From Microgenomates group bacterium (GTDB lineage Bacteria; Patescibacteriota; Microgenomatia; PFEM01; JBNASD01), in assembly GCA_049720225.1 (NCBI GenBank), contig JBNASD010000001.1:396815-460814 (forward strand): a stretch of 64,000 nucleotides of DNA, given 5' to 3'. The notes under the pieces are model-generated. The model saw nothing but the letters and a program-made list of their open reading frames with translations, searched no databases and was not told the origin of the DNA. A program made the translations under genes and the position numbers. Shown here piece by piece: positions 6,841 through 16,219 of this stretch. The first letter of the stretch is position 1. Every line of letters starts with the position of its first letter.

Positions 6841-7497
6841 TCAAAATTGAAATTTTTCTTTTTTTAAGTAAGAAATGTTTTTAAAAAAACTGGTTAGAAA
6901 AATAATTAATAAAAAAAGAGAGCTAACAAAAAAAACCCAATCGGCTAAAGAAAGATTAAATTTAAAGAGGGTTAATTTTTTATTTTTTAAAAACCAAATT
7001 AAAATATTAAAAATAATCAGTAAAAATCTTCCTTCCGTTCCTCCTATTTTCCCATAAGAAAGATAAAAAACTTTACTTACTGAATGAATTAAATAGGCGT
7101 TAATCATTAAAAGAAGAATTAAGGAAAGAAAAATTATCGCCCAAAAAGTATCCGTTAAAGGAGAAAAATAAATTCCTAAAATCACTCCCGTCACCGCTGT
7201 AGAATCTAAAAGATGATCAAGATAATAACCATAATTTGGGCGAGATTTTCCTCTAAACTTTGCTAATTTTCCATCTAATCCATCGGCTAGCCAATGATAA
7301 AAAATTAAAAAGTTAATTAACCAAAGTAGGTTTAAATTTTTTCCTGCTAAATAATAAATCAACCCAGAAAAAATAAAAGCAAAAAATGCAGAAAAAGAAA
7401 GCATATCCGGAGTAATCCATGAAGGAATTTTTTTTACTACTCCCCAGAGAAACTTTTCTTCCCACTGACTAAAAAAACCAAAATTTACTCGTTTCAT
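6841..7497 (-). CDS. CDP-alcohol phosphatidyltransferase family membrane protein
   Basis: ADGLDGKLAKFRGKSRPNYGYYLDHLLDST fits D(x)2DG(x)2AR...G(x)3D(x)3D. It has several TM helices. Confidence 0.6.
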   Translation of the reverse strand: MKRVNFGFFSQWEEKFLWGVVKKIPSWITPDMLSFSAFFAFIFSGLIYYLAGKNLNLLWLINFLIFYHWLADGLDGKLAKFRGKSRPNYGYYLDHLLDSTAVTGVILGIYFSPLTDTFWAIIFLSLILLLMINAYLIHSVSKVFYLSYGKIGGTEGRFLLIIFNILIWFLKNKKLTLFKFNLSLADWVFFVSSLFLLIIFLTSFFKNISYLKKEKFQF

Positions 7498-7710
7498 TTT
7501 TCTAATTTTATCATTTTGAATTTAATTTTGAAAGAATTTACTTATCTTTTTTTGAGAAAAAAGCAAAAGTGTTAAAAGTAAGCTTAAGGAAATTTTTTCT
7601 TATTTATTTGGTTTTTTCTGATTTAAAAGAAAAAGCAAAAATCGCCCGTGAAAGAAAAAAGAAAAGATTAACACTCTTTAGAAATTTTTTAAGTCTAAAG
7701 AAAAAAACAT

Positions 7711-8100
7711 TTGAATAGCATACTATCAAAATGGGGAATAGTTAATTTTACGCTTCAAGGAATAGAACTTGTCGATAACCAAACAAGTCAGTTTAGACTA
7801 ATAATTGAAGTAGATGATCCCATCTTTATTAAAGCTATCGAAGATAATAATCCGCCGACGATAAGATACAAAATTACGAATTCCATAGATGAACTTGATG
7901 CTGACTTTTTACTCGTTGAAGTAGATTCGAAAATAGTAATAAGAACAAGCGGAATAATTTTTCCTAAAATAGATAATATTAAGGGACTATTCGATCAACT
8001 TTATGATCGTGGTTATAGAATAAAAGAAAAGACAGAAACACCATCTTTCTTAGAACCATTTCAACCATGGAAAGAATTAGTCAAGGAAAAAAATAAATGA
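7711..8100 (+). CDS. Orphan 129-aa ORF with no family recognised (putative)
   Basis: It is the only plus-strand ORF in a minus-strand neighbourhood. It is 390 nt open in AT-rich DNA, but has no in-frame ATG (TTG start at 7711, frame opens at 7699) and no obvious SD. Confidence 0.3.
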   Translation: MNSILSKWGIVNFTLQGIELVDNQTSQFRLIIEVDDPIFIKAIEDNNPPTIRYKITNSIDELDADFLLVEVDSKIVIRTSGIIFPKIDNIKGLFDQLYDRGYRIKEKTETPSFLEPFQPWKELVKEKNK

Positions 8101-8170
8101 ACTTAACCACCGCTACTCGAATAACAACGAAGGGAATACCTCCAAAATCTCAAAGAAGCATTGAAAGTTC

Positions 8171-8684
8171 CTAGGCTAACAAAAATGATCCCATAACTCC
8201 CCACCAAGATAAAATTCCCAATAAAGCTTTAGCGGGCACAGTAATCAAAATTATTACCGGAATAGTAAAAGTCAAGATTATTCTAATCCCTTTGTTATAA
8301 ATATCAGTAGGAAACCGCGCCATACTTGTTAAATCGCGATAAACCCAAACTAAATGGTCAATTTCTGTAGTTAGAACACAAACGGAACAAAAAAATAAAT
8401 GAAAAGCAAAAGCCAAAATTAAGGCATTAAAAAATAAAATCAAAAAAATAAAAAATTGCAAATATTAAAAAAGCCAAAATAAATAAAATATACCCATAAA
8501 GGAACCAAAATAATTCCATTAAAATATCAGTCCACCCAAAAATAGGTCTAAAAAAAGAAAGTAAGGGCTTTAATAAATCTAAATCGTAATTACCAGAAAC
8601 AACTAATGACCGCAATTGATAAACGCCACGAAATAAAAATTGCACAGTAATATCAACTAAGCAAAAAAGCAATTCCCACAACAT
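8171..8684 (-). pseudogene. Polytopic membrane protein remnant split by a frameshift (two overlapping ORFs; possibly an ABC-2-type permease C-terminal part)
   Basis: ORFs 8427-8684 and 8171-8461 overlap in different frames and both are very hydrophobic. The total is only ~170 aa, which suggests N-terminal truncation. Confidence 0.35.
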
Positions 8685-8724
8685 AAGCTAACATTAGTAA
8701 TTTTTGCCAATTGCCAATATTTTT

Positions 8725-9738
8725 TCATACGCCTCTTTTAAAATTTAACCATTTTTCTACTCCATAAGTAAACCAATAAAAAGGAGAGATAATTAAATCC
8801 TGAGTGGGTAAAAGAGTAAATTCTCTTCCTCCAAATCCGGTTTTAAATAAAGTTAATCCCTGCCAACTTTTTGGTGTTCTTTTTTCTTGATAAATCCCCC
8901 AAAAATTATAAGTTTGGCAACCTCTTTTTTTTGCTTCTTTAATCGCTTCCCATTGAAGAAGATAACTTGCTGGATATGAAGTATGAATTGAAGCTCCTTG
9001 ATGATAAAAAGCTCCCTTTTTGGTAAAAATTATCAAAGCACCAGCTAAATATTTTCCTTGCAAAGATACCAAAAACCATTGACAGCTATTGGTTTTTTTA
9101 AAAACTTCAAATTCCTTCTTTAAATATTCAAAGGAAAAAGGCACAAATTTTTCGCGTTTTGCAGTTTCTAAATATAATTTCCAAAAAATTTCTAAACCTA
9201 CCAAATCCTCTCTTTTTTCTACTTTTAATTCGCTTTTTAAAGCTTTTCTTATTAAATATCGTGTTGTTTTTCGCATTTCTTTTAATAATTCTTCTTCATT
9301 TTTATTTAGATTCAATACCCACATCTTTTCTGCATGCATATAAATAGGTGCTTGGCGAAAACCTAATTCCTGATAAAATTCTTTTACCTTTAAGTTGTCT
9401 TCCTGCCAAGGAGCAATTCTTATAAACCAAAAATTATTTTTTATCGCAATTTTTTTAATTTTTTTAAGAAGAAAAACCAATGGTTTTTTTAACGAAGAGA
9501 AATCATTTAAAAAAATTGGCCCATGGGGAATAAATAAAAATTTTCCTCTTTTTATTTTTTGTTTAATTATTAATACCAAAATTAAAGGAATATTTTTTTC
9601 AAATAACCCTAATCTTAAAATTGAATTTCCCATTCTTTTTTGAAATTCTCCCCATTCCCAAGAATGCAAAAAAGAAAAATTACCTTGGTTGAAAAATTTT
9701 TTCCAAATTAATGAAGAATTTATTTTTCTAATTTCCAT
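8725..9738 (-). CDS. FemAB-family peptidyl/aminoacyl transferase (peptidoglycan interpeptide-bridge formation; GNAT-like)
   Basis: The N-terminal ...FSFLHSWEWGEFQKRMG... is the FemAB/FemX signature. The two-lobed length (337 aa) fits. Confidence 0.6.
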   Translation of the reverse strand: MEIRKINSSLIWKKFFNQGNFSFLHSWEWGEFQKRMGNSILRLGLFEKNIPLILVLIIKQKIKRGKFLFIPHGPIFLNDFSSLKKPLVFLLKKIKKIAIKNNFWFIRIAPWQEDNLKVKEFYQELGFRQAPIYMHAEKMWVLNLNKNEEELLKEMRKTTRYLIRKALKSELKVEKREDLVGLEIFWKLYLETAKREKFVPFSFEYLKKEFEVFKKTNSCQWFLVSLQGKYLAGALIIFTKKGAFYHQGASIHTSYPASYLLQWEAIKEAKKRGCQTYNFWGIYQEKRTPKSWQGLTLFKTGFGGREFTLLPTQDLIISPFYWFTYGVEKWLNFKRGV

Positions 9739-10924
9739 TTATTAATTTAACAATTTTTTCTGCTTCTTTTAAGGAAATATTAGTTGGCAAATTAATTATT
9801 TCTCGACAGATCTTCTCTGCTTGAGGACAACTTTTTGGTTCATATTTCATTTTTTTTAAATTCACCCCTTTTGGGGCTACAATTTGATTATACCAAGTAC
9901 CTAAAAAAATTCCTTTTTTAGCTAACTTTCTTTTAATTTCTTCCGGATTTTTTACTCGTAATGGGTAGCGAAGTAAACCATTTTCGCTCTGATAATTCAA
10001 ACCAAAACTTTGGTTGTAAAATTCAGTAATCACTTGTCTTTTTTTTTCTATTTCTTTTTTTCTTTTTAATTGAGAAAGCAAAAGTTTTCCTAAAACTAGA
10101 GGATAAATTTTATCAAAATCAAAATTATAAAATCCCCTTTTTTCTTTTTCTGTTACTTCAGGAATTAAAAAGCCAATTTTCTTTGCCCAGTAATGAATTA
10201 ATTTTCCTAAACTTATTTTATAAGTTTTTTTAATTAAAACAGCTAGGGGTTTATAAAAAAGAATCTTAAAAATAGTTATTTTTGAAGGAAAAGAAAGACT
10301 CTTTTCTTCTTCTTTCAATCTTTTGCCAATTTTTTTATCACTCGTAACAATAGCTCCGCCAAAAACGGAAGAAAAAACTTTAGACCGACCAAAAGAAAAT
10401 AAAAAATTACCATTTTTGGTAGAAGAAAAAATTTTTTGATTAAATCCATGGGCAAGATCCTCGGCTAACAAAAGACCATTTTTTTCGGCAAAAGAAAGAA
10501 TTTTTTCTCGATAAAGGGGAGTCAAACCAAAAGTATGTTGAAGAAGAATAACTTTTGTTTTGGGAGTAATTTTTTTTAATAAATCAAAAAAATCCATTGA
10601 GTAAGTTTTATTTTCAATATCAACATAAATTGGTTTCAAATTATTCGTCAATATTGGCAAAACTACTGCTTCACAGGTAAATCCTTGAATTGCTACTTCA
10701 CTTTTCGGCGGGAAGTTTAAACTTTTAAGAAAATGAAACCAGGCACTTCGGCCAGTAAAGAAAGGGAAAAAATCAGAATTAATTTTTAAACCAAGTCTAT
10801 TTAAAATTTCTTTTTTAGTTTTTAAATCAAGAGGTTTTTGCCAATTCCAAGGCTGAAAAATTAAAGAAAAAGAAATCAACGCGTCTTTAAAATTTTCATT
10901 AGGAGCAAAATTAAGATTAATCAT
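9728..10924 (-). CDS. DegT/DnrJ/EryC1/StrS-family PLP-dependent sugar aminotransferase
   Basis: FTCEAVVLP, LLQHTFG and AEDLAHGF blocks. The PLP-lysine motif SFGRSKVFSSVFGGAIVTSD matches SFxxxK...GEGGxxxTnD. Confidence 0.65.
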   Translation of the reverse strand: MINLNFAPNENFKDALISFSLIFQPWNWQKPLDLKTKKEILNRLGLKINSDFFPFFTGRSAWFHFLKSLNFPPKSEVAIQGFTCEAVVLPILTNNLKPIYVDIENKTYSMDFFDLLKKITPKTKVILLQHTFGLTPLYREKILSFAEKNGLLLAEDLAHGFNQKIFSSTKNGNFLFSFGRSKVFSSVFGGAIVTSDKKIGKRLKEEEKSLSFPSKITIFKILFYKPLAVLIKKTYKISLGKLIHYWAKKIGFLIPEVTEKEKRGFYNFDFDKIYPLVLGKLLLSQLKRKKEIEKKRQVITEFYNQSFGLNYQSENGLLRYPLRVKNPEEIKRKLAKKGIFLGTWYNQIVAPKGVNLKKMKYEPKSCPQAEKICREIINLPTNISLKEAEKIVKLINGN

Positions 10925-11804
10925 AGATTGAAATTGGAAATTGAAAAATGTCTATTTTATAAATTTTTTTATTAATTTTAATTTTAAAATCCTGCCCAAA
11001 AGAAACAACCAACCGATCAGCAGGAATTATTCCAAATCCTCCTTTTCTTGTGGTTAATCCCTTTTTTCTTCGCCATTCAATTGCTGGATCTAAAGGAAAC
11101 CATTGTCCATCAGGAAGCAAAACTTCTACCCAAACATGCATAAAAAAAGAATCCCAATTTAAAGGAAAAACTCGGAAAAAAATTTTTTTATTTAGAATAA
11201 AACCCACTACTAATCGTCCAGGAATCTTTAATCCTTTAAGAAGAGAAAGTAAAACCGTAGAAAAACCTCCACAATCAGTAATTTTTTCTTTTAAAGCTTG
11301 AGAAAAAGAATAAAGACCTTTAATTGGATTTCCGTAAACTAAATTTTCTAAAACATAATTGTAAGCTATTTCGATAAGATTACTTACATCTTTCTCTTTT
11401 TGCCAATTCTTAATTATTTTTTTAATTTCTCTTGATTCTCCATTCACGAACCGATCTGGTTTAAATAAAAAGGAATATTTTTTTAAAAGATCAAAAGGAT
11501 AATCATTTAAAGAAAATTTTGGTATTTTTAAACTCACTGAATAAGGAAAATAGTCGAAGGAAATGATTTTATTTTTATTATCTTTTTTAGATATAAGAAT
11601 TAAATTACCAAATTTATCAGAAAAAATAATCGATGAAGAAGGAAAAAAAAGATTTTCAATTTTTTGATAATGATTAGTTTGGGGAAGGGCAAGAATAACT
11701 TTTTCTTCTTTAAATTGCCACTTCACCTTCAACCAATTTTTATGCGTAATTTTTTTTGACAAAAAGCTCCCGAATAATATCTTCAATTGCTGGCTCTTCA
11801 ACAT
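10917..11804 (-). CDS. Transglutaminase-like cysteine-protease-fold protein
   Basis: The Cys-His-Asp triad context is ITDCGGFSTVLLSLL ... FMHVWVEVLL ... FPLDP. Its 5' end overlaps the truncated ABC ATPase ORF. Confidence 0.6.
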   Translation of the reverse strand: MLKSQQLKILFGSFLSKKITHKNWLKVKWQFKEEKVILALPQTNHYQKIENLFFPSSSIIFSDKFGNLILISKKDNKNKIISFDYFPYSVSLKIPKFSLNDYPFDLLKKYSFLFKPDRFVNGESREIKKIIKNWQKEKDVSNLIEIAYNYVLENLVYGNPIKGLYSFSQALKEKITDCGGFSTVLLSLLKGLKIPGRLVVGFILNKKIFFRVFPLNWDSFFMHVWVEVLLPDGQWFPLDPAIEWRRKKGLTTRKGGFGIIPADRLVVSFGQDFKIKINKKIYKIDIFQFPISIYD

Positions 11805-12240
11805 TTTCCAGAAAGGTTACTAATTCATCTAAAGTTTGTTTATATTTTTCTTCAGGGATCTCATAAATTTCTTTATTAAGCCCAAAATTTTCTAAAGGAG
11901 GTAAATCCTCCCAAAGTTGATTTTTTTGTCTCATTACTAAAGAAATTTGTTTTAAAAATTCTAGTTTTTGTTGGTGAGGTAAAAAACCTAAAACAGAAAT
12001 AAAACCGGAAGTAGGATATAAAAGACCAGAAAGACATTTTAAAGTAGTAGTTTTCCCTACACCGTTTGGGCCAATAAAACCAACTAACTCCCCTTCCTCT
12101 ATTTTAAAAGAAATATCGTCTACTGCTTTAATTTCTTCGGAACGACGATTAAAAATTGCCTTTATTGATCCCAACAAACCGACATCTTTCTTATAAACCC
12201 GATAATACTTTTTCAGATTTTTAACCTCGATTATCGGCAC
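11740..12240 (-). pseudogene. ABC transporter ATP-binding protein, N-terminal fragment (Walker A + Q-loop only; signature, Walker B and H-loop missing)
   Basis: It has GPNGVGKTT (Walker A) and a Q-loop region, then ...LDELVTFLENVEE and stops where LSGGQ should follow. At 166 aa it is well short of the ~230-300 aa typical for these ATPases. Confidence 0.6.
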
Positions 12241-12246
12241 TTAATT

Positions 12247-12519
12247 TCATTTCACTGCTTTTTTAAGAGGTTTACCGGGAGAAAATCGCGCTGCCCGATG
12301 ACTCTTGACAATCTTCTTCTCTTTGGTGCCGGGAACCAAAACGGGTTTATCTTTTACCTTCACCACTTTAAAAGTTCCAAATCCCGACAAAACGACCTTT
12401 TCTCCCTTTTTTAAAGCTCGAGTAATCTCACCCAAAAAGGTTTCAATTGCCTCTTTGGCAGCTTTTCGGGTAAGATGAGCTTTTTGGGCAACGAGAGAAA
12501 TTATTTCTCTTTTAGTCAT
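12247..12519 (-). CDS. hup: HU-family nucleoid DNA-binding protein
   Basis: MTKREIISLVAQKAHLTRKAAKEAIETFLGEI...GFGTFKV...RNP-like arm. Confidence 0.85.
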   Translation of the reverse strand: MTKREIISLVAQKAHLTRKAAKEAIETFLGEITRALKKGEKVVLSGFGTFKVVKVKDKPVLVPGTKEKKIVKSHRAARFSPGKPLKKAVK

Positions 12520-12576
12520 TTTTCCCCCTCCTTTCTGGGCAGAATTAATTTAACTTTAAAATAGCAGGAAAAATTG

Positions 12577-12600
12577 TTTTTGTCAATAATTTGACAAAAA
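12577..12600. promoter_or_regulatory. Inverted repeat in the divergent hup / GH130 promoter region (candidate operator; arms contain TTGACA)
   Basis: tttttgtcaa-taat-ttgacaaaaa is a 10-bp inverted repeat with a 4-bp spacer. TTGACA in either orientation can act as a -35. Confidence 0.3.
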
Positions 12601-12669
12601 TTTAAAACTTATAAATAATTTAAGTAATAAAAAATAATAAATTCGAGATAAATTCGAAAAACTTTTTTA

Positions 12670-14322
12670 ATGAAGAAAAAACTCAATAATGTATTGAGAA
12701 TTTTAGGTGTTGGTAACTTAACTAATCAAGTTTTTATTTTTAAATTCTATCCTTCTAAAAAGAAAAATTTTTTCCAAATCACAAGCAGTAAAGATGGTTT
12801 TGATTTTAAACTCTTCAAAAAATGGGGAGAAATTATCAAACAAAATGGTCAACAGGAAAAAATCGTCAATTGCCAAGACTTTTATCTTAGTAAGATTAAA
12901 AATTCTTTTTTTCTTACTTACAAACTTAAAGAAAATAAAACCAATCAACTTTGTGGAGCAATTTGGAGTGGTTTCTCTCATTGGCAAAAAACAGGAAAAA
13001 TAGACAAAATTAAAGAAAGTGGGGTAGTTGTTCCCTCTTACACTTATCAAAAACATTACCTTCTTTATTTTGGTGAAAAAGCAATTAATCTTGCGGTCTC
13101 TTCAGATTTAATCAAATGGCAAATCTTACCAAAACCCATTTTTTCCTTAACCAAAAAACTTCTTAATAAAGGTTTCCGTTTAAAAATAGGAGGAGTGGTC
13201 CCAGAAAAAAAGAAACTTCTTTTGTTATATTTTCTTTTTCAGAATGGAAAAAATCCCAAAAATTACGCTATCGAGGGAATCATTATCAACAAGAATAATC
13301 CCTTTAAATTATTTAAAAAACTAACTTCTCCACTTTGGAAACAGAAAAATGAATGGAAAAAAGAAACCGTTTTTCCTGTGGGAATTTTGAAAGTTAAAAA
13401 CTATTTTGTCGCCTATTGGCAAAATTCAAAAGGTATTTTATATGCTTATCCTTTTTATTTTTCTTTTCCGGAAAAATCCTATTTTCAAAAAAGAGCCTTT
13501 TCTTTTTTGGAAAAATTTTCTCAAAACCCCATTTTAAAACCAAAAAGAGAACATCAATGGGAATCTAAAGCGGTATTCAATACCGCCGCCGTCAAAATAA
13601 AAAACAAAATCCATTTCATTTATCGGGCAGTAGGAGAAAATGACATTTCTGTTTGGGGATATGCCGCGAGTAAAAATGGGTTTGAAATTAATGAAAAATC
13701 GGAAAAGCCAATTTTTACCTCCTGTTTATTAAAAAGAAAAAGTTATTTTCCTTTTCAACTTGGTTTACCTTTTTATCTTTCAGGAGTAGGTTTCGGCGAA
13801 GGTAAATATGCCATTTTTCATAGTCTTTCCCCAGAAATTTTAATAGATTATTTTGACGATTTAAATTTTGACGGAAAAACTTTTATCAGAAGCTATTATG
13901 ACGGAAAACCTAAAAAGGCAATTTGGGAAGAAAGAATAAGAGGAGTAGGTCCTCCTCCTTTGAAAACCCCTGAGGGTTGGTTAGTTTTTTATCATGCAAT
14001 GGATAAACAAAACTCTAATCTTTATAAAATAGGAGCAATGATTTTAGATCTAAACCAACCGACAAAAATTTTATATCGCGCTCCTTTACCAGTTTTAGAA
14101 CCAAGCGAAATTTATGAAAATGAAGGATTAAAACCAGGAATTGTTTATAGTTGTGGAGCGGTCATTTTTCGAAAAAAAATTTTCCTTTATTATGGAGGGG
14201 CAGATACAGTTATTTGCGTTGCTTCCGCCCCTTTAAATATTTTTTTAAACCAATTAAAATCTAATGAAACACCGAATTTAAATCTTAATTTTAGAACTAT
14301 TAATTTAAATGATAGAAATTAA
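12670..14322 (+). CDS. Tandem two-domain GH130-like (DUF377, 5-bladed beta-propeller) protein; degenerate, the GCEDPR catalytic motif is absent from both domains
   Basis: The second domain has NPILKPKREHQWESKAVFNTAAV...IHFIYRAVGENDISVWGYAASKNG and the C-terminal GPPPLKTPEGWLVFYHA...YSCGAV...LYYGGADTVICVA blocks shared with the next gene. No GCEDPR motif. Confidence 0.6.
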   Translation: MKKKLNNVLRILGVGNLTNQVFIFKFYPSKKKNFFQITSSKDGFDFKLFKKWGEIIKQNGQQEKIVNCQDFYLSKIKNSFFLTYKLKENKTNQLCGAIWSGFSHWQKTGKIDKIKESGVVVPSYTYQKHYLLYFGEKAINLAVSSDLIKWQILPKPIFSLTKKLLNKGFRLKIGGVVPEKKKLLLLYFLFQNGKNPKNYAIEGIIINKNNPFKLFKKLTSPLWKQKNEWKKETVFPVGILKVKNYFVAYWQNSKGILYAYPFYFSFPEKSYFQKRAFSFLEKFSQNPILKPKREHQWESKAVFNTAAVKIKNKIHFIYRAVGENDISVWGYAASKNGFEINEKSEKPIFTSCLLKRKSYFPFQLGLPFYLSGVGFGEGKYAIFHSLSPEILIDYFDDLNFDGKTFIRSYYDGKPKKAIWEERIRGVGPPPLKTPEGWLVFYHAMDKQNSNLYKIGAMILDLNQPTKILYRAPLPVLEPSEIYENEGLKPGIVYSCGAVIFRKKIFLYYGGADTVICVASAPLNIFLNQLKSNETPNLNLNFRTINLNDRN

Positions 14323-16219
14323 ACGACACCCTAAAAATCCAATTTTAACCCCTGACGAAACTCAATTTTGGGAGGCCGAAGCTACTTTCAATGGAAGTAT
14401 TGCTCCCGATGACAACTTTTATCATTTTGTTTATCGAGCAGTTTCTTTTCCTCATTTTTATTTTGATAAAGAAATCTCTTTATCAACAATTGGCTACGCA
14501 AAAACTAAAGACGGAGTTAAATTTTTTGATCGTCAGCCACTTATTATGCCTGAATATCCCTGGGAACAATTTGGATGTGAAGACCCCCGAATTACTAAAT
14601 TTGAAGGAAAATATTGGATTTTTTATACTGCTTTGAGTAATTTTCCTCCTTCTCCTCAGGACATAAAAATAGGAGTAGCAATTACTTCTGATTTTAAAAA
14701 ATTAAAAAAACATCAAGTTACTGATTTTAATTCTAAAGCAATGGCATTATTTCCCGAAAGAATTAATGGAAAAATTGTGGGAATTTTAACAGTTAACACT
14801 GATTTACCCCCAGCAAAGATTGCTTTAGTTTTTTTTGATAACGAAGAGCAAATTTGGTCAAAAGAATTTTGGCATAATTGGCTTTCTTCATTAAGTAATT
14901 TTATTCTTCCTCTCAAAAGAAATCCCTCTGATCAAGTAGAAGTAGGGGCTCCTCCTTTAAAAACACCTAAAGGGTGGTTGTTAATCTATTCCCACATTAA
15001 AAATTATCTTTCTCCTCCGCCTGTTTTTGGAATCGAAGCGGTACTATTAGATTTGGAAAATCCTCTTAAAATCTTAGGGAGGACTCTTCAACCACTTTTG
15101 ATTCCACTTCAAGAATATGAACTTTATGGTCGTGTTCCTAATGTCATTTTTCCCTCAGGAGCAGTAATTAAAAAGGAAAAAGTTTATCTTTATTATGGTG
15201 CCGCTGACACTTCTTGTTGTTTAGCAGAAATTCCTCTCAAAAGATTACTTACTCTCCTTACTACTAAAAAACATCCCCCTTCTCCTCCTTTTCGTTTAGA
15301 AAAATATTTGGGAAATCCTATTCTTACTCCTAAAAAAGAAAATAAATGGGAATCAAAACAAACTTTTAATCCAGGGGTAATTTTTGAAGGCGGAAGAATT
15401 CACCTTCTTTATCGAGCGGTTGGCGAAGACAATACTTCAGTATTAGGATATGCCTCTAGTAAAGATGGCTTTTATTTTGATGAAAGATTAACCAAACCAG
15501 TTTATCTACCTCGAGAAGAGTTTGAGAAAAAAACAAGCCCAGAAGTAGCTTCAGGATGTGAAGATCCGCGGTTAACTAAGATTGGTGACCGAATTTATAT
15601 GCTTTATACCGCTTTTGATGGGAAAAATCCCTGGAAGGTAGCAATGACTTCTATTAAGGTAAAAGATTTTTTGGCGAAAAATTGGCAATGGGAAAAACCA
15701 ATTATTATTTCTCATCCAGAAAGAAGCGATAAAAACGCTTGTTTGTTAGAAGAAAAAATTAATAATCAATATGTTTTTTTTCACCGGATTGGTCATTGTA
15801 TTTGGATTGATTTTGTAGATGATTTAGAATTCAAAAATGGTCGATTTCTTGGAGGAAAAATAATTTTATGGCCTAGAAAAGGAAAGTGGGATAGTCATAA
15901 GGTAGAAATCGCCGGTCCCCCTTTAAAAACAAAAAAAGGTTGGCTGTTAATATATCATGGTCTTTCTTTAGAGGATAAAAAATATCGATTAGGAGCGGTT
16001 CTTTTAGAGCTTAAAAATCCGGAAAAAGTTATTAGTCAATTAGACGAACCTATTTTAGAACCAGAAGAAGAATATGAAAAAAATGGAGTAAGACCAGGAA
16101 CTGTTTTTTCCTGCGGGGCGGTAATTTTAGGAGAAAAAATTTTGGTATATTATGGGGCCGGTGACCAAACAATTGCGGTAGCTTCAGTAAATTTAAATTC
16201 CCTTCTTAACCGCTTTTAA
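14309..16219 (+). CDS. Tandem two-domain GH130-family glycoside phosphorylase/hydrolase-like protein (both domains keep GCEDPR)
   Basis: Domain 1 has NPILTPDETQFWEAEATFNGS...YRAV...FGCEDPRITKFEGKYWIFYTA. Domain 2 has NPILTPKKENKWESKQTFNPGVIFEGGRIHLLYRAVGEDN...SGCEDPRLTKIGDRIYMLYTA. Both are hallmark GH130 blocks. Its start overlaps the previous gene's stop. Confidence 0.7.
   Translation: MIEIKRHPKNPILTPDETQFWEAEATFNGSIAPDDNFYHFVYRAVSFPHFYFDKEISLSTIGYAKTKDGVKFFDRQPLIMPEYPWEQFGCEDPRITKFEGKYWIFYTALSNFPPSPQDIKIGVAITSDFKKLKKHQVTDFNSKAMALFPERINGKIVGILTVNTDLPPAKIALVFFDNEEQIWSKEFWHNWLSSLSNFILPLKRNPSDQVEVGAPPLKTPKGWLLIYSHIKNYLSPPPVFGIEAVLLDLENPLKILGRTLQPLLIPLQEYELYGRVPNVIFPSGAVIKKEKVYLYYGAADTSCCLAEIPLKRLLTLLTTKKHPPSPPFRLEKYLGNPILTPKKENKWESKQTFNPGVIFEGGRIHLLYRAVGEDNTSVLGYASSKDGFYFDERLTKPVYLPREEFEKKTSPEVASGCEDPRLTKIGDRIYMLYTAFDGKNPWKVAMTSIKVKDFLAKNWQWEKPIIISHPERSDKNACLLEEKINNQYVFFHRIGHCIWIDFVDDLEFKNGRFLGGKIILWPRKGKWDSHKVEIAGPPLKTKKGWLLIYHGLSLEDKKYRLGAVLLELKNPEKVISQLDEPILEPEEEYEKNGVRPGTVFSCGAVILGEKILVYYGAGDQTIAVASVNLNSLLNRF

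Follow-up and report, generated by a model that had tools for sequence, protein, structure and literature searches.

How did three intact enzyme genes come to stand between a shortened ABC transporter ATPase gene and a stretch of broken permease sequence, and what became of the transporter? The question is raised by a 64-kb stretch of a Microgenomates/Candidate Phyla Radiation (CPR) metagenome-assembled genome (MAG), referred to here as the window. Along its minus strand, the order from 5' to 3' is HU, a 166-amino-acid (aa) ABC ATPase open reading frame (ORF), the genes for a transglutaminase-like (TGase-like), a DegT-like and a FemAB-like enzyme (together, the cassette), and the broken permease stretch (Table 1). 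These ORFs had been listed in an earlier sequence-only reading of the window, and all of them are present at the listed positions. Comparison with related loci indicates that the three-gene module very probably entered an ancestral, intact ABC transporter operon and that the transporter decayed afterwards.

The transporter operon in relatives

The window proteins were mapped onto 80 loci, one genome per species, which were chosen for a reconstructed full-length ATPase and came mostly from Microgenomates-type MAGs. This identified a conserved block of RNase Y, HU, ATPase (327 aa), permease 1, permease 2, MiaB and MiaA. In about 60 related loci the ATPase and the two permease genes are contiguous and cassette-free, supplying the intact ATPase-permease arrangement without the cassette that the sequence-only reading had envisaged in relatives. 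Permease 1 usually follows the ATPase by 0-60 nucleotides (nt) and permease 2 by 800-900 nt, each as an uninterrupted match, and in L007, L008, L011 and L013 both permeases are unbroken, with ORFs of 261-278 aa. The ATPase is followed by a TGase, DegT or FemAB gene in none of the 80 loci.

The operon is somewhat plastic, because a few of the 80 loci have extra permease paralogues, a putative transposase ORF or an orphan ATPase. A 346-aa ORF starting MQYIGIDLHKQYG, which may encode an IS110-type transposase, lies between permease paralogues downstream of the ATPase in L037 (10946-11986). Upstream of the ATPase in L087 there is a second, distant permease pair (7429-9007), 28-29% identical to permeases 1 and 2, the first gene of which is broken into small ORFs. 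Similar pairs of permease paralogues, upstream or downstream, occur in L010, L041, L020 and other loci.

Position and age of the cassette

Homologues of the TGase-like protein (128 clusters) and their contigs were used to find cassette loci. The cassette directly follows this ATPase in only six loci, namely the window, L001, L086, L087, L090 and L091. In L087 and L091, permease 1 begins (MRKYLTLAKIT) at the end of FemAB, its ATG overlapping the FemAB stop codon (MRKYLTLAKITFEEY...); the window has MKKYWQLAKIT at the corresponding position, likewise overlapped by the FemAB stop (ATGA). At the other junction, the TGase ATG overlaps the ATPase stop codon (TATGCTTGA/TAA) in L001, L087, L090 and L091, and in cassette-free L008 the permease 1 ATG has the same position as the TGase ATG of the cassette loci (TATGACTAA). 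The ATG over the ATPase stop is mutated in the window (ACG) and in its sister locus L086 (ACA), and the window TGase gene starts at an ATG at 11804 or, in the NCBI annotation, at a GTG at 11726 (269 aa). Because the overlaps at both junctions are kept in relatives, the insertion is read as intergenic, between the ATPase stop and the permease 1 start, with no gene broken. Replacement of permease 1 by the cassette was considered and rejected, as permease 1 still follows FemAB in L087 and L091 and its first 12 codons survive in the window.

The sequence-only reading had pictured a different event, in which the cassette landed inside the ATPase at its LSGGQ motif, split the ATPase from the permease and killed the transporter in a single step. 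The window ATPase ORF does lack everything from just before the signature motif on, and the TGase ORF does overlap its end. However, the window ORF ends with an authentic ATPase C-terminus and stop codon, after which the cassette begins; in L086, L087 and L091 a full-length ATPase of 327-329 aa stands before the same cassette; and the 161 missing codons are an internal, in-frame deletion relative to L086. We consider a one-step split of the ATPase scarcely credible.

The intergenic insertion is old and vertically inherited, as judged from sequence divergence among the cassette loci. In a neighbour-joining tree of concatenated TGase, DegT and FemAB proteins (979 columns, 38 loci), the window, L086 and L087 were grouped in 100/100 bootstraps. 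Pairwise identities define a subclade A (window, L086) and a subclade B (L087, L091, L090, L001), between which cassette-protein identity is 56-67%. For HU, identity between the subclades is 82-91%, and with the nearest cassette-free locus, L008, it is 73-79%. A recent or strain-specific event, which had been suggested from the window itself, is contradicted by a cassette common to two subclades with such divergent proteins.

The cassette has a GC content of 0.265-0.276, about 1.5 standard deviations (sd) below the window mean (0.323, sd 0.035; overall about 30%). Its genes have codon-usage distances of 0.063-0.078 against a window mean of 0.067, and the comparison of composition and codon usage with the window revealed no codon-usage anomaly. 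The cassette composition gives no sign of a recent foreign origin. Only AT-rich chance repeats were found around the cassette, and no integrase, transposase or recombinase ORF was found in 7400-12800; the repeat search and the scan of ORFs and families agree in this with the sequence-only reading, which had noted no repeats, integrase or transposase.

The closest species-representative genome, L006 (GTDB representative MAG Kamch4342-D-MF-044), has an ATPase 87-89% identical to that of subclade B. The last codon on its contig is the ATPase stop (7281-7283), at the very point where the cassette starts in relatives, and this end may reflect population heterogeneity at the junction.

An internal deletion in the ATPase gene

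When compared codon by codon with L086, the window ATPase was found to keep codons 1-145, including Walker A and the Q-loop, together with its last 21 codons and the stop. The 161 codons between them (483 nt) are deleted in frame, with the junction between 11806 and 11805. By alignment to L001 and L086, the deleted block holds the signature (LSGGQ-type; LSLGQ in this subfamily), Walker B, the H-loop and the C-terminal domain, and the first three of these motifs are all missing from the window ORF. The ATPases of the closest relatives (L001, L086) are 327-329 aa long and end ...NIEE(S/P)PIEDIIR(E/D)LF..KNY(A/T) before the stop codon. The window ORF ends ...LENVEEPAIEDIIRELFVKKNYA before its own, and its C-terminus ...EEPAIEDIIRELFVKKNYA is that of the full-length proteins of L001, L008 and L086. 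Truncation at the signature, as first proposed from the sequence, is borne out insofar as the profile match stops at position 94 of 137, but the gene was not simply cut, since about 21 terminal residues are the true C-terminus. In L086, two imperfect repeats that each encode I-E-E, ATAGAAGAG and ATCGAAGAA, border the block that the window lost, and because of this placement the deletion fits slippage or illegitimate recombination between short imperfect repeats.

The substitution pattern of the remnant shows mildly relaxed constraint. Four of its 57 near-invariant sites (at least 95% conserved) are changed, compared with a mean of 0.5 and a maximum of 3 in 84 relatives. One change is in Walker A, where the P-loop (GxxGxGK[ST]) is retained as GPNGVGKTT with A to V at a position at least 95% conserved in those relatives; the others are R to Q, G to R and W to E near the Q-loop. 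Identity to outgroups is 2-7 points below that of L086, and 5-7 points below it in seven of eight comparisons. From its missing motifs, the 166-aa product is best described as a dead remnant.

A sigma-70-like promoter site (TTGACA-17-TATTTT with TG, 12586 to 12558) lies upstream of HU, and a search for sites around the cassette found no terminator-like site between HU and TGase. Because of this promoter-like site, the lack of an intervening terminator-like site and the overlapping stop and start codons, the three cassette genes are probably read together with HU and the ATPase remnant in one transcript.

Could the 166-aa ORF instead be functional, either as a short P-loop protein or as an expressed leader that couples TGase to the strongly expressed HU? 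The exactly in-frame deletion, the still recognisable Walker A, the continuity from HU to TGase and the overlap of the ATPase 3' end with the TGase start, which is kept in every cassette locus including L090, would all suit such a role. However, a deletion is expected to be in frame by chance one time in three, the ancestral TGase ATG has been lost in the window, near-invariant residues in Walker A and by the Q-loop are substituted, and L090 manages without the 5' part of the ATPase. No conserved family of this length was found either. Matches of 130-290 aa were considered as candidates for a genuine short ATPase family and rejected, as several are labelled partial and none has the N-terminus-plus-C-terminus layout of the window. 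A complete 189-aa ATPase of Roizmanbacteria, the one short match examined, was likewise rejected as a member of the same short family because it is truncated elsewhere, at Walker B. A functional short protein or leader is improbable on this evidence.

The Roizmanbacteria ATPase was seen in the last ~110 nt of four contigs (L002-L005; e.g. L003 9950-10086), in which the orthologous gene has a complete ORF of 189 aa whose end falls right at Walker B (...PKVLFLEVISKLSSV and stop). A hairpin, ATGGACAGT...ACTGTCCAT, comes next, and the contigs of the four independent assemblies end 58-109 nt later, within the same sequence. This suggests that a multi-copy or variable element may be inserted in the ATPase gene of these genomes.

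A chimeric permease pseudogene

The sequence-only reading had described a hydrophobic, permease-like remnant broken by a frameshift at 8684-8171. Permease homology (PF06182, tblastn) and frameshifting were both confirmed, whereas three-frame translation gave a longer extent (8728-8103, 626 nt) with at least three frameshifts, two deletions and no intact ORF. The piece at 8461-8171 matches ABC2_membrane_6 at profile positions 112-200 of 229 (E 8.6e-13). The piece at 8684-8427 has no Pfam match alone and is 53-71% identical to permease 2 of the relatives L007 and L008 by tblastn.

When aligned by frame-aware tblastn with the intact L007 and L008 permeases, the remnant proved to be a chimera. Codons 1-12 of permease 1 are followed by a deletion, by the permease 1 segment MLAYVVGIAFL and then by permease 2 from about residue 70; the switch from permease 1 to permease 2 is at a homologous position. 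Two further frameshifts follow, and the sequence ends ...RFWRYSLRCYSSSGG and stop, the typical C-terminus of the family. An uninterrupted ORF of about 260 aa is precluded by in-frame stops, and about 50 residues are missing. With both its ATPase and its permeases in this state, the window transporter is non-functional.

Decay of the transporter in other cassette loci

The transporter genes are in different states in the six loci. L086 has an intact ATPase of 329 aa, and its contig ends within FemAB, before the permeases. The ATPase is also intact in L091, in which permease 1 has one frameshift before the contig ends, and in L087, in which permeases 1 and 2 form a chimera with stops and a junction near residue 226. 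In L001 the ATPase has one frameshift in an A-run, and in L090 only its last ~63 codons are left; both contigs end before the permeases. In the window, the ATPase has the 161-codon in-frame deletion and the permease chimera has its junction at about residue 70. Because the lesions differ between loci, the ancestor of the cassette clade is reconstructed as having had the cassette together with an intact transporter, with decay occurring later and independently in each lineage.

As the window is from a MAG, and one of its frameshifts is within a T-rich homopolymer tract (8427-8461), we considered whether the transporter could be intact in the organism and the lesions be errors of assembly or sequencing. 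At least three frameshifts and two deletions within 626 nt, together with a clean 483-nt in-frame deletion in the ATPase, would have to be errors in a window whose other long ORFs (RecA, RecX, RNase Y and ORFs of 1228 and 1069 aa) are unbroken. A general assembly error is unlikely because these ORFs are uninterrupted. In addition, the same genes have decayed differently in independent datasets (L087, L090), and the ATPase remnant has an excess of substitutions at conserved sites. Sequencing error cannot explain the lesions of the window, L087 and L090, and an artefact is very improbable as an account of the locus.

The three genes as a conserved module

All three cassette ORFs are full length, and their products lack hydrophobic segments. 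In a survey of 80 metagenome loci and others, DegT starts no more than 300 nt past the end of TGase in 50 of the 60 loci with enough sequence and lies further downstream in six, and FemAB follows DegT within 1 kb in all 40 of 40 loci. The three genes therefore form a coherent unit, as had been supposed from the window. The TGase-like homologues that were found (128 clusters) come nearly all from Patescibacteria. The TGase-DegT-FemAB trio is a conserved Patescibacteria module and is present in several genomic contexts. Upstream of the module there is a DsbA-like thioredoxin gene in 28 loci and a Na/H exchanger gene in 10. On the downstream side, at least 13 loci have a convergent gene for a Wzt-like ABC ATPase within a few kb, a similar number have an ABC-2 permease gene, and genes for a polysaccharide deacetylase, DUF5656 and GT2 recur. 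A Mur-ligase-family gene directly precedes the TGase-like gene in 15 loci, which hints at a possible link of the module to peptidoglycan-precursor chemistry. This gene encodes about 413 aa (e.g. L122 45-1286), with Mur_ligase_M (E 1.9e-36) and Mur_ligase_C matches and without the N-terminal domain.

The TGase-like protein matches PF01841 with 56.7 bits against a gathering threshold of 23. Its residues D159-C160-G-G, H205 and D221 are invariant in 30 homologues, within the motifs D-C-G-G, H-x-W-x-E and D. No match was found among PDB sequences and no NCBIfam model matched. An AlphaFold2 (AF2) model (predicted local distance difference test, pLDDT, 94.6) has 3isr as its nearest Foldseek match (E 1.7e-11), with Streptococcus pyogenes TglA (9crn), TgpA and PeiP/PeiW also retrieved.

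The DegT-like protein is divergent and predicted to be soluble, and scores 98.2 bits against PF01041 (gathering threshold 19.8). In the PDB it matches 7b0d (E 2.8e-17). The Lys of its FSFGRSK motif aligns with those of FSFYPAK in QdtB and FSFYPTK in 7b0d, and we take the QdtB residue to be the catalytic pyridoxal phosphate (PLP) lysine. Against the NCBIfam equivalogs PseC, WecE, ArnB, DesI, RfbH and LegC it scores 28-47 bits, under cut-offs of 375-650.

The FemAB-like protein scores 99.2 bits against PF02388 (cut-off 24), also matches Acetyltransf_6 and has no coiled-coil insert. Its best solved relative is Staphylococcus aureus FemX (PDB 6snr, E 6.6e-16). NCBI names it 'lipid II:glycine glycyltransferase FemX', and against the FemX equivalog NF047883 it scores 33.8 bits with a cut-off of 500. 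FemAB-type proteins had been thought unusual in this lineage; on the contrary, they are common in Patescibacteria, with 4191 homologue clusters at E<=1e-10, the listed named ones being from Microgenomates, Roizmanbacteria or Patescibacteria.

Proposed history and function

The history that we favour with high confidence starts from the ancestral Microgenomates arrangement of the conserved block. A pre-existing three-gene module would have landed between the ATPase stop and the permease 1 start in the ancestor of the clade, keeping the overlaps and breaking nothing. The transporter genes would then have decayed separately in the descendants while the three enzyme genes stayed intact. In the window, the ATPase would have lost 161 internal codons between imperfect repeats and the permeases would have collapsed into the chimeric, frameshifted pseudogene. 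The transporter may have become dispensable after the insertion, or because of it, and this is the weakest point of the proposal.

An alternative for this last step is that the transporter was dispensable for unrelated ecological reasons and that the cassette is a neutral passenger in a decaying, rearrangement-prone region. The region is plastic: a pair of GH130 genes separates RNase Y from HU, and additional ORFs separate the permease remnant from MiaB. Downstream permeases are missing from some lineages without the cassette as well, and the clade ancestor carried the cassette beside intact transporter genes. However, transporter damage is found in every inspectable cassette locus except L086, in which the permease region is cut off, and most cassette-free loci are intact. 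Cassette and damage are therefore strongly associated, with the reservation that an intact ATPase was the criterion by which the 80 comparison loci were chosen. We regard a neutral passenger as the less likely explanation, although one to be taken seriously.

Several points weigh against insertion followed by decay. The single frameshifts of L001 and L091 could be sequencing errors. Causality from insertion to transporter loss is putative, and cassette-free relatives with an orphan ATPase exist. In five of these (L009, L044, L045, L048, L064) the ATPase is full length and no ABC2_membrane_6 permease is found in the ~4-6 kb downstream. Because no permease gene is downstream in these five loci, the ATPase can apparently persist as an orphan, or their permeases are encoded elsewhere. 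Loss of the transporter was judged from 64 kb of the genome, so that another copy could be present elsewhere. The insertion itself left no mechanistic trace in the form of repeats, an integrase or a transposase, and the cassette has normal codon usage. Co-transcription with HU is proposed on a promoter consensus match, and the role of the module on family, fold and neighbours, with all three proteins far below every NCBIfam equivalog cut-off. In L044 and L048 the orphan ATPase is followed by large ORFs, from 519 to more than 1400 aa long.

As for function, we tentatively propose, with rather less than even confidence, that the module is a cytoplasmic pathway that modifies a cell-envelope precursor. 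The PLP aminotransferase would put an amine on a keto-sugar-type substrate, and the FemAB-like enzyme would use aminoacyl-tRNA to attach an amino acid to an amine, either of this substrate or of the peptidoglycan stem peptide. Making or cleaving an (iso)peptide or amide bond would fall to the TGase-fold enzyme. More speculatively, and in our judgement unlikely, the trio may be an undescribed Patescibacteria-specific pathway for a non-canonical envelope component, the arrival of which made the transporter redundant or harmful, so that its repeated loss was driven by selection and not by drift. If so, an amino-sugar bearing an aminoacyl group would be one candidate for the component, and a peptidoglycan stem with unusual branches or isopeptide links another. 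No description of the trio or of the transporter was found in the literature on FemAB/FemX in CPR/Patescibacteria, on ABC2_membrane_6 and on FemAB, DegT and transglutaminase.

The locus and its neighbours

Table 1. Features of the cassette locus on the window
Feature	Position	Strand	Evidence and remarks
HU (Bac_DNA_binding)	12247..12519	-	Pfam PF00216, E 2.2e-24; first gene of probable transcription unit
ABC ATPase remnant, 166 aa, DUF990-type transporter	11740..12240	-	Pfam ABC_tran, profile positions 2-94 of 137, E 2.5e-16
TGase-like enzyme	10917..11804	-	Transglut_core, Pfam PF01841, E 3.3e-15
DegT-like enzyme	9728..10924	-	DegT_DnrJ_EryC1, Pfam PF01041, E 7.5e-28
FemAB-like enzyme, 337 aa	8725..9738	-	Pfam PF02388, E 3e-28
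Permease 1/permease 2 chimeric pseudogene (ABC2_membrane_6)	8103..8728	-	three-frame translation, tblastn, Pfam PF06182

In most relatives HU is immediately 5' of the ATPase. In the window, RNase Y (17630-16230) is separated from HU by two tandem Glyco_hydro_130 (GH130) genes of 550 and 636 aa on the plus strand (12670-16219), both of which match the GH130 profile in two stretches. No gene stands between RNase Y and HU in L006, L008, L086 and L087, and the GH130 pair looks like a second, putatively lineage-specific insertion in the same neighbourhood. Two extra ORFs lie between the permease remnant and MiaB (6841-8100), where relatives have little or nothing. The first encodes a 218-aa multi-pass membrane protein that weakly resembles CDP-alcohol phosphatidyltransferases; its best NCBIfam match is archaetidylinositol phosphate synthase (E 2.9e-9), far under the cut-off. 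The second, of 129 aa and on the plus strand, has no family match.

Significance

The rearrangement itself is ordinary genome evolution, an event of a known kind in which a module is inserted and pseudogenisation follows. CPR/Patescibacteria genomes are streamlined, and this locus is a small case of an insertion with several independent pseudogenisations that shows the remodelling and loss of an operon. Public annotation lists the 166-aa product as an 'ATP-binding cassette domain-containing protein', and counts of transporters should leave it out. In Microgenomates and their relatives, whose envelopes are almost unknown, the uncharacterised trio could mark a lineage-specific cell-wall chemistry.

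Comparison with known systems

The window remnants belong with the DUF990-type ABC-2 transporters, which consist of an ABC_tran ATPase and two ABC2_membrane_6 permeases (JGI 'ABC-2 type transport system'). Relatives hold the intact three-gene operon at the same chromosomal position, whereas the window ATPase lacks the motifs past the Q-loop and the window permeases are a frameshifted chimera.

With the transglutaminase-like cysteine proteases (3isr, Pseudomonas aeruginosa TgpA and the pseudomurein endoisopeptidases PeiP/PeiW), the TGase-like protein has Transglut_core and Cys-His-Asp in common. Its model has the same two-domain layout as 3isr, a putative cysteine protease of Cytophaga hutchinsonii, with a template modelling (TM) score of ~0.5. 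The TgpA domain is periplasmic, whereas the window protein, which is without a hydrophobic segment, is predicted to be cytoplasmic. The DegT-like protein resembles the DegT/DnrJ/EryC1/StrS sugar and inositol aminotransferases (QdtB, 3frk; glutamine-scyllo-inositol transaminase, 7b0d) in that the PLP lysine and the ED-x-AH motif align. It differs from them by an extra N-terminus of ~55 residues and aligns only over residues ~57-204 and a weak C-terminal stretch. The 337-aa FemAB-like protein is similar in size to the coiled-coil-less FemX of Weissella viridescens (PDB 1ne9, 4ii9), but an arrangement with a DegT-like gene always and a TGase-like gene usually upstream is not described for FemX/FemAB.

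Finally, the cassette resembles genomic islands and mobile gene cassettes in being a multi-gene unit that is found at different chromosomal positions and was inserted into a conserved operon. It differs from them in having no integrase, transposase, tRNA target or flanking repeat in its host-like codon usage, and in the age and vertical inheritance of its insertion into the transporter operon.

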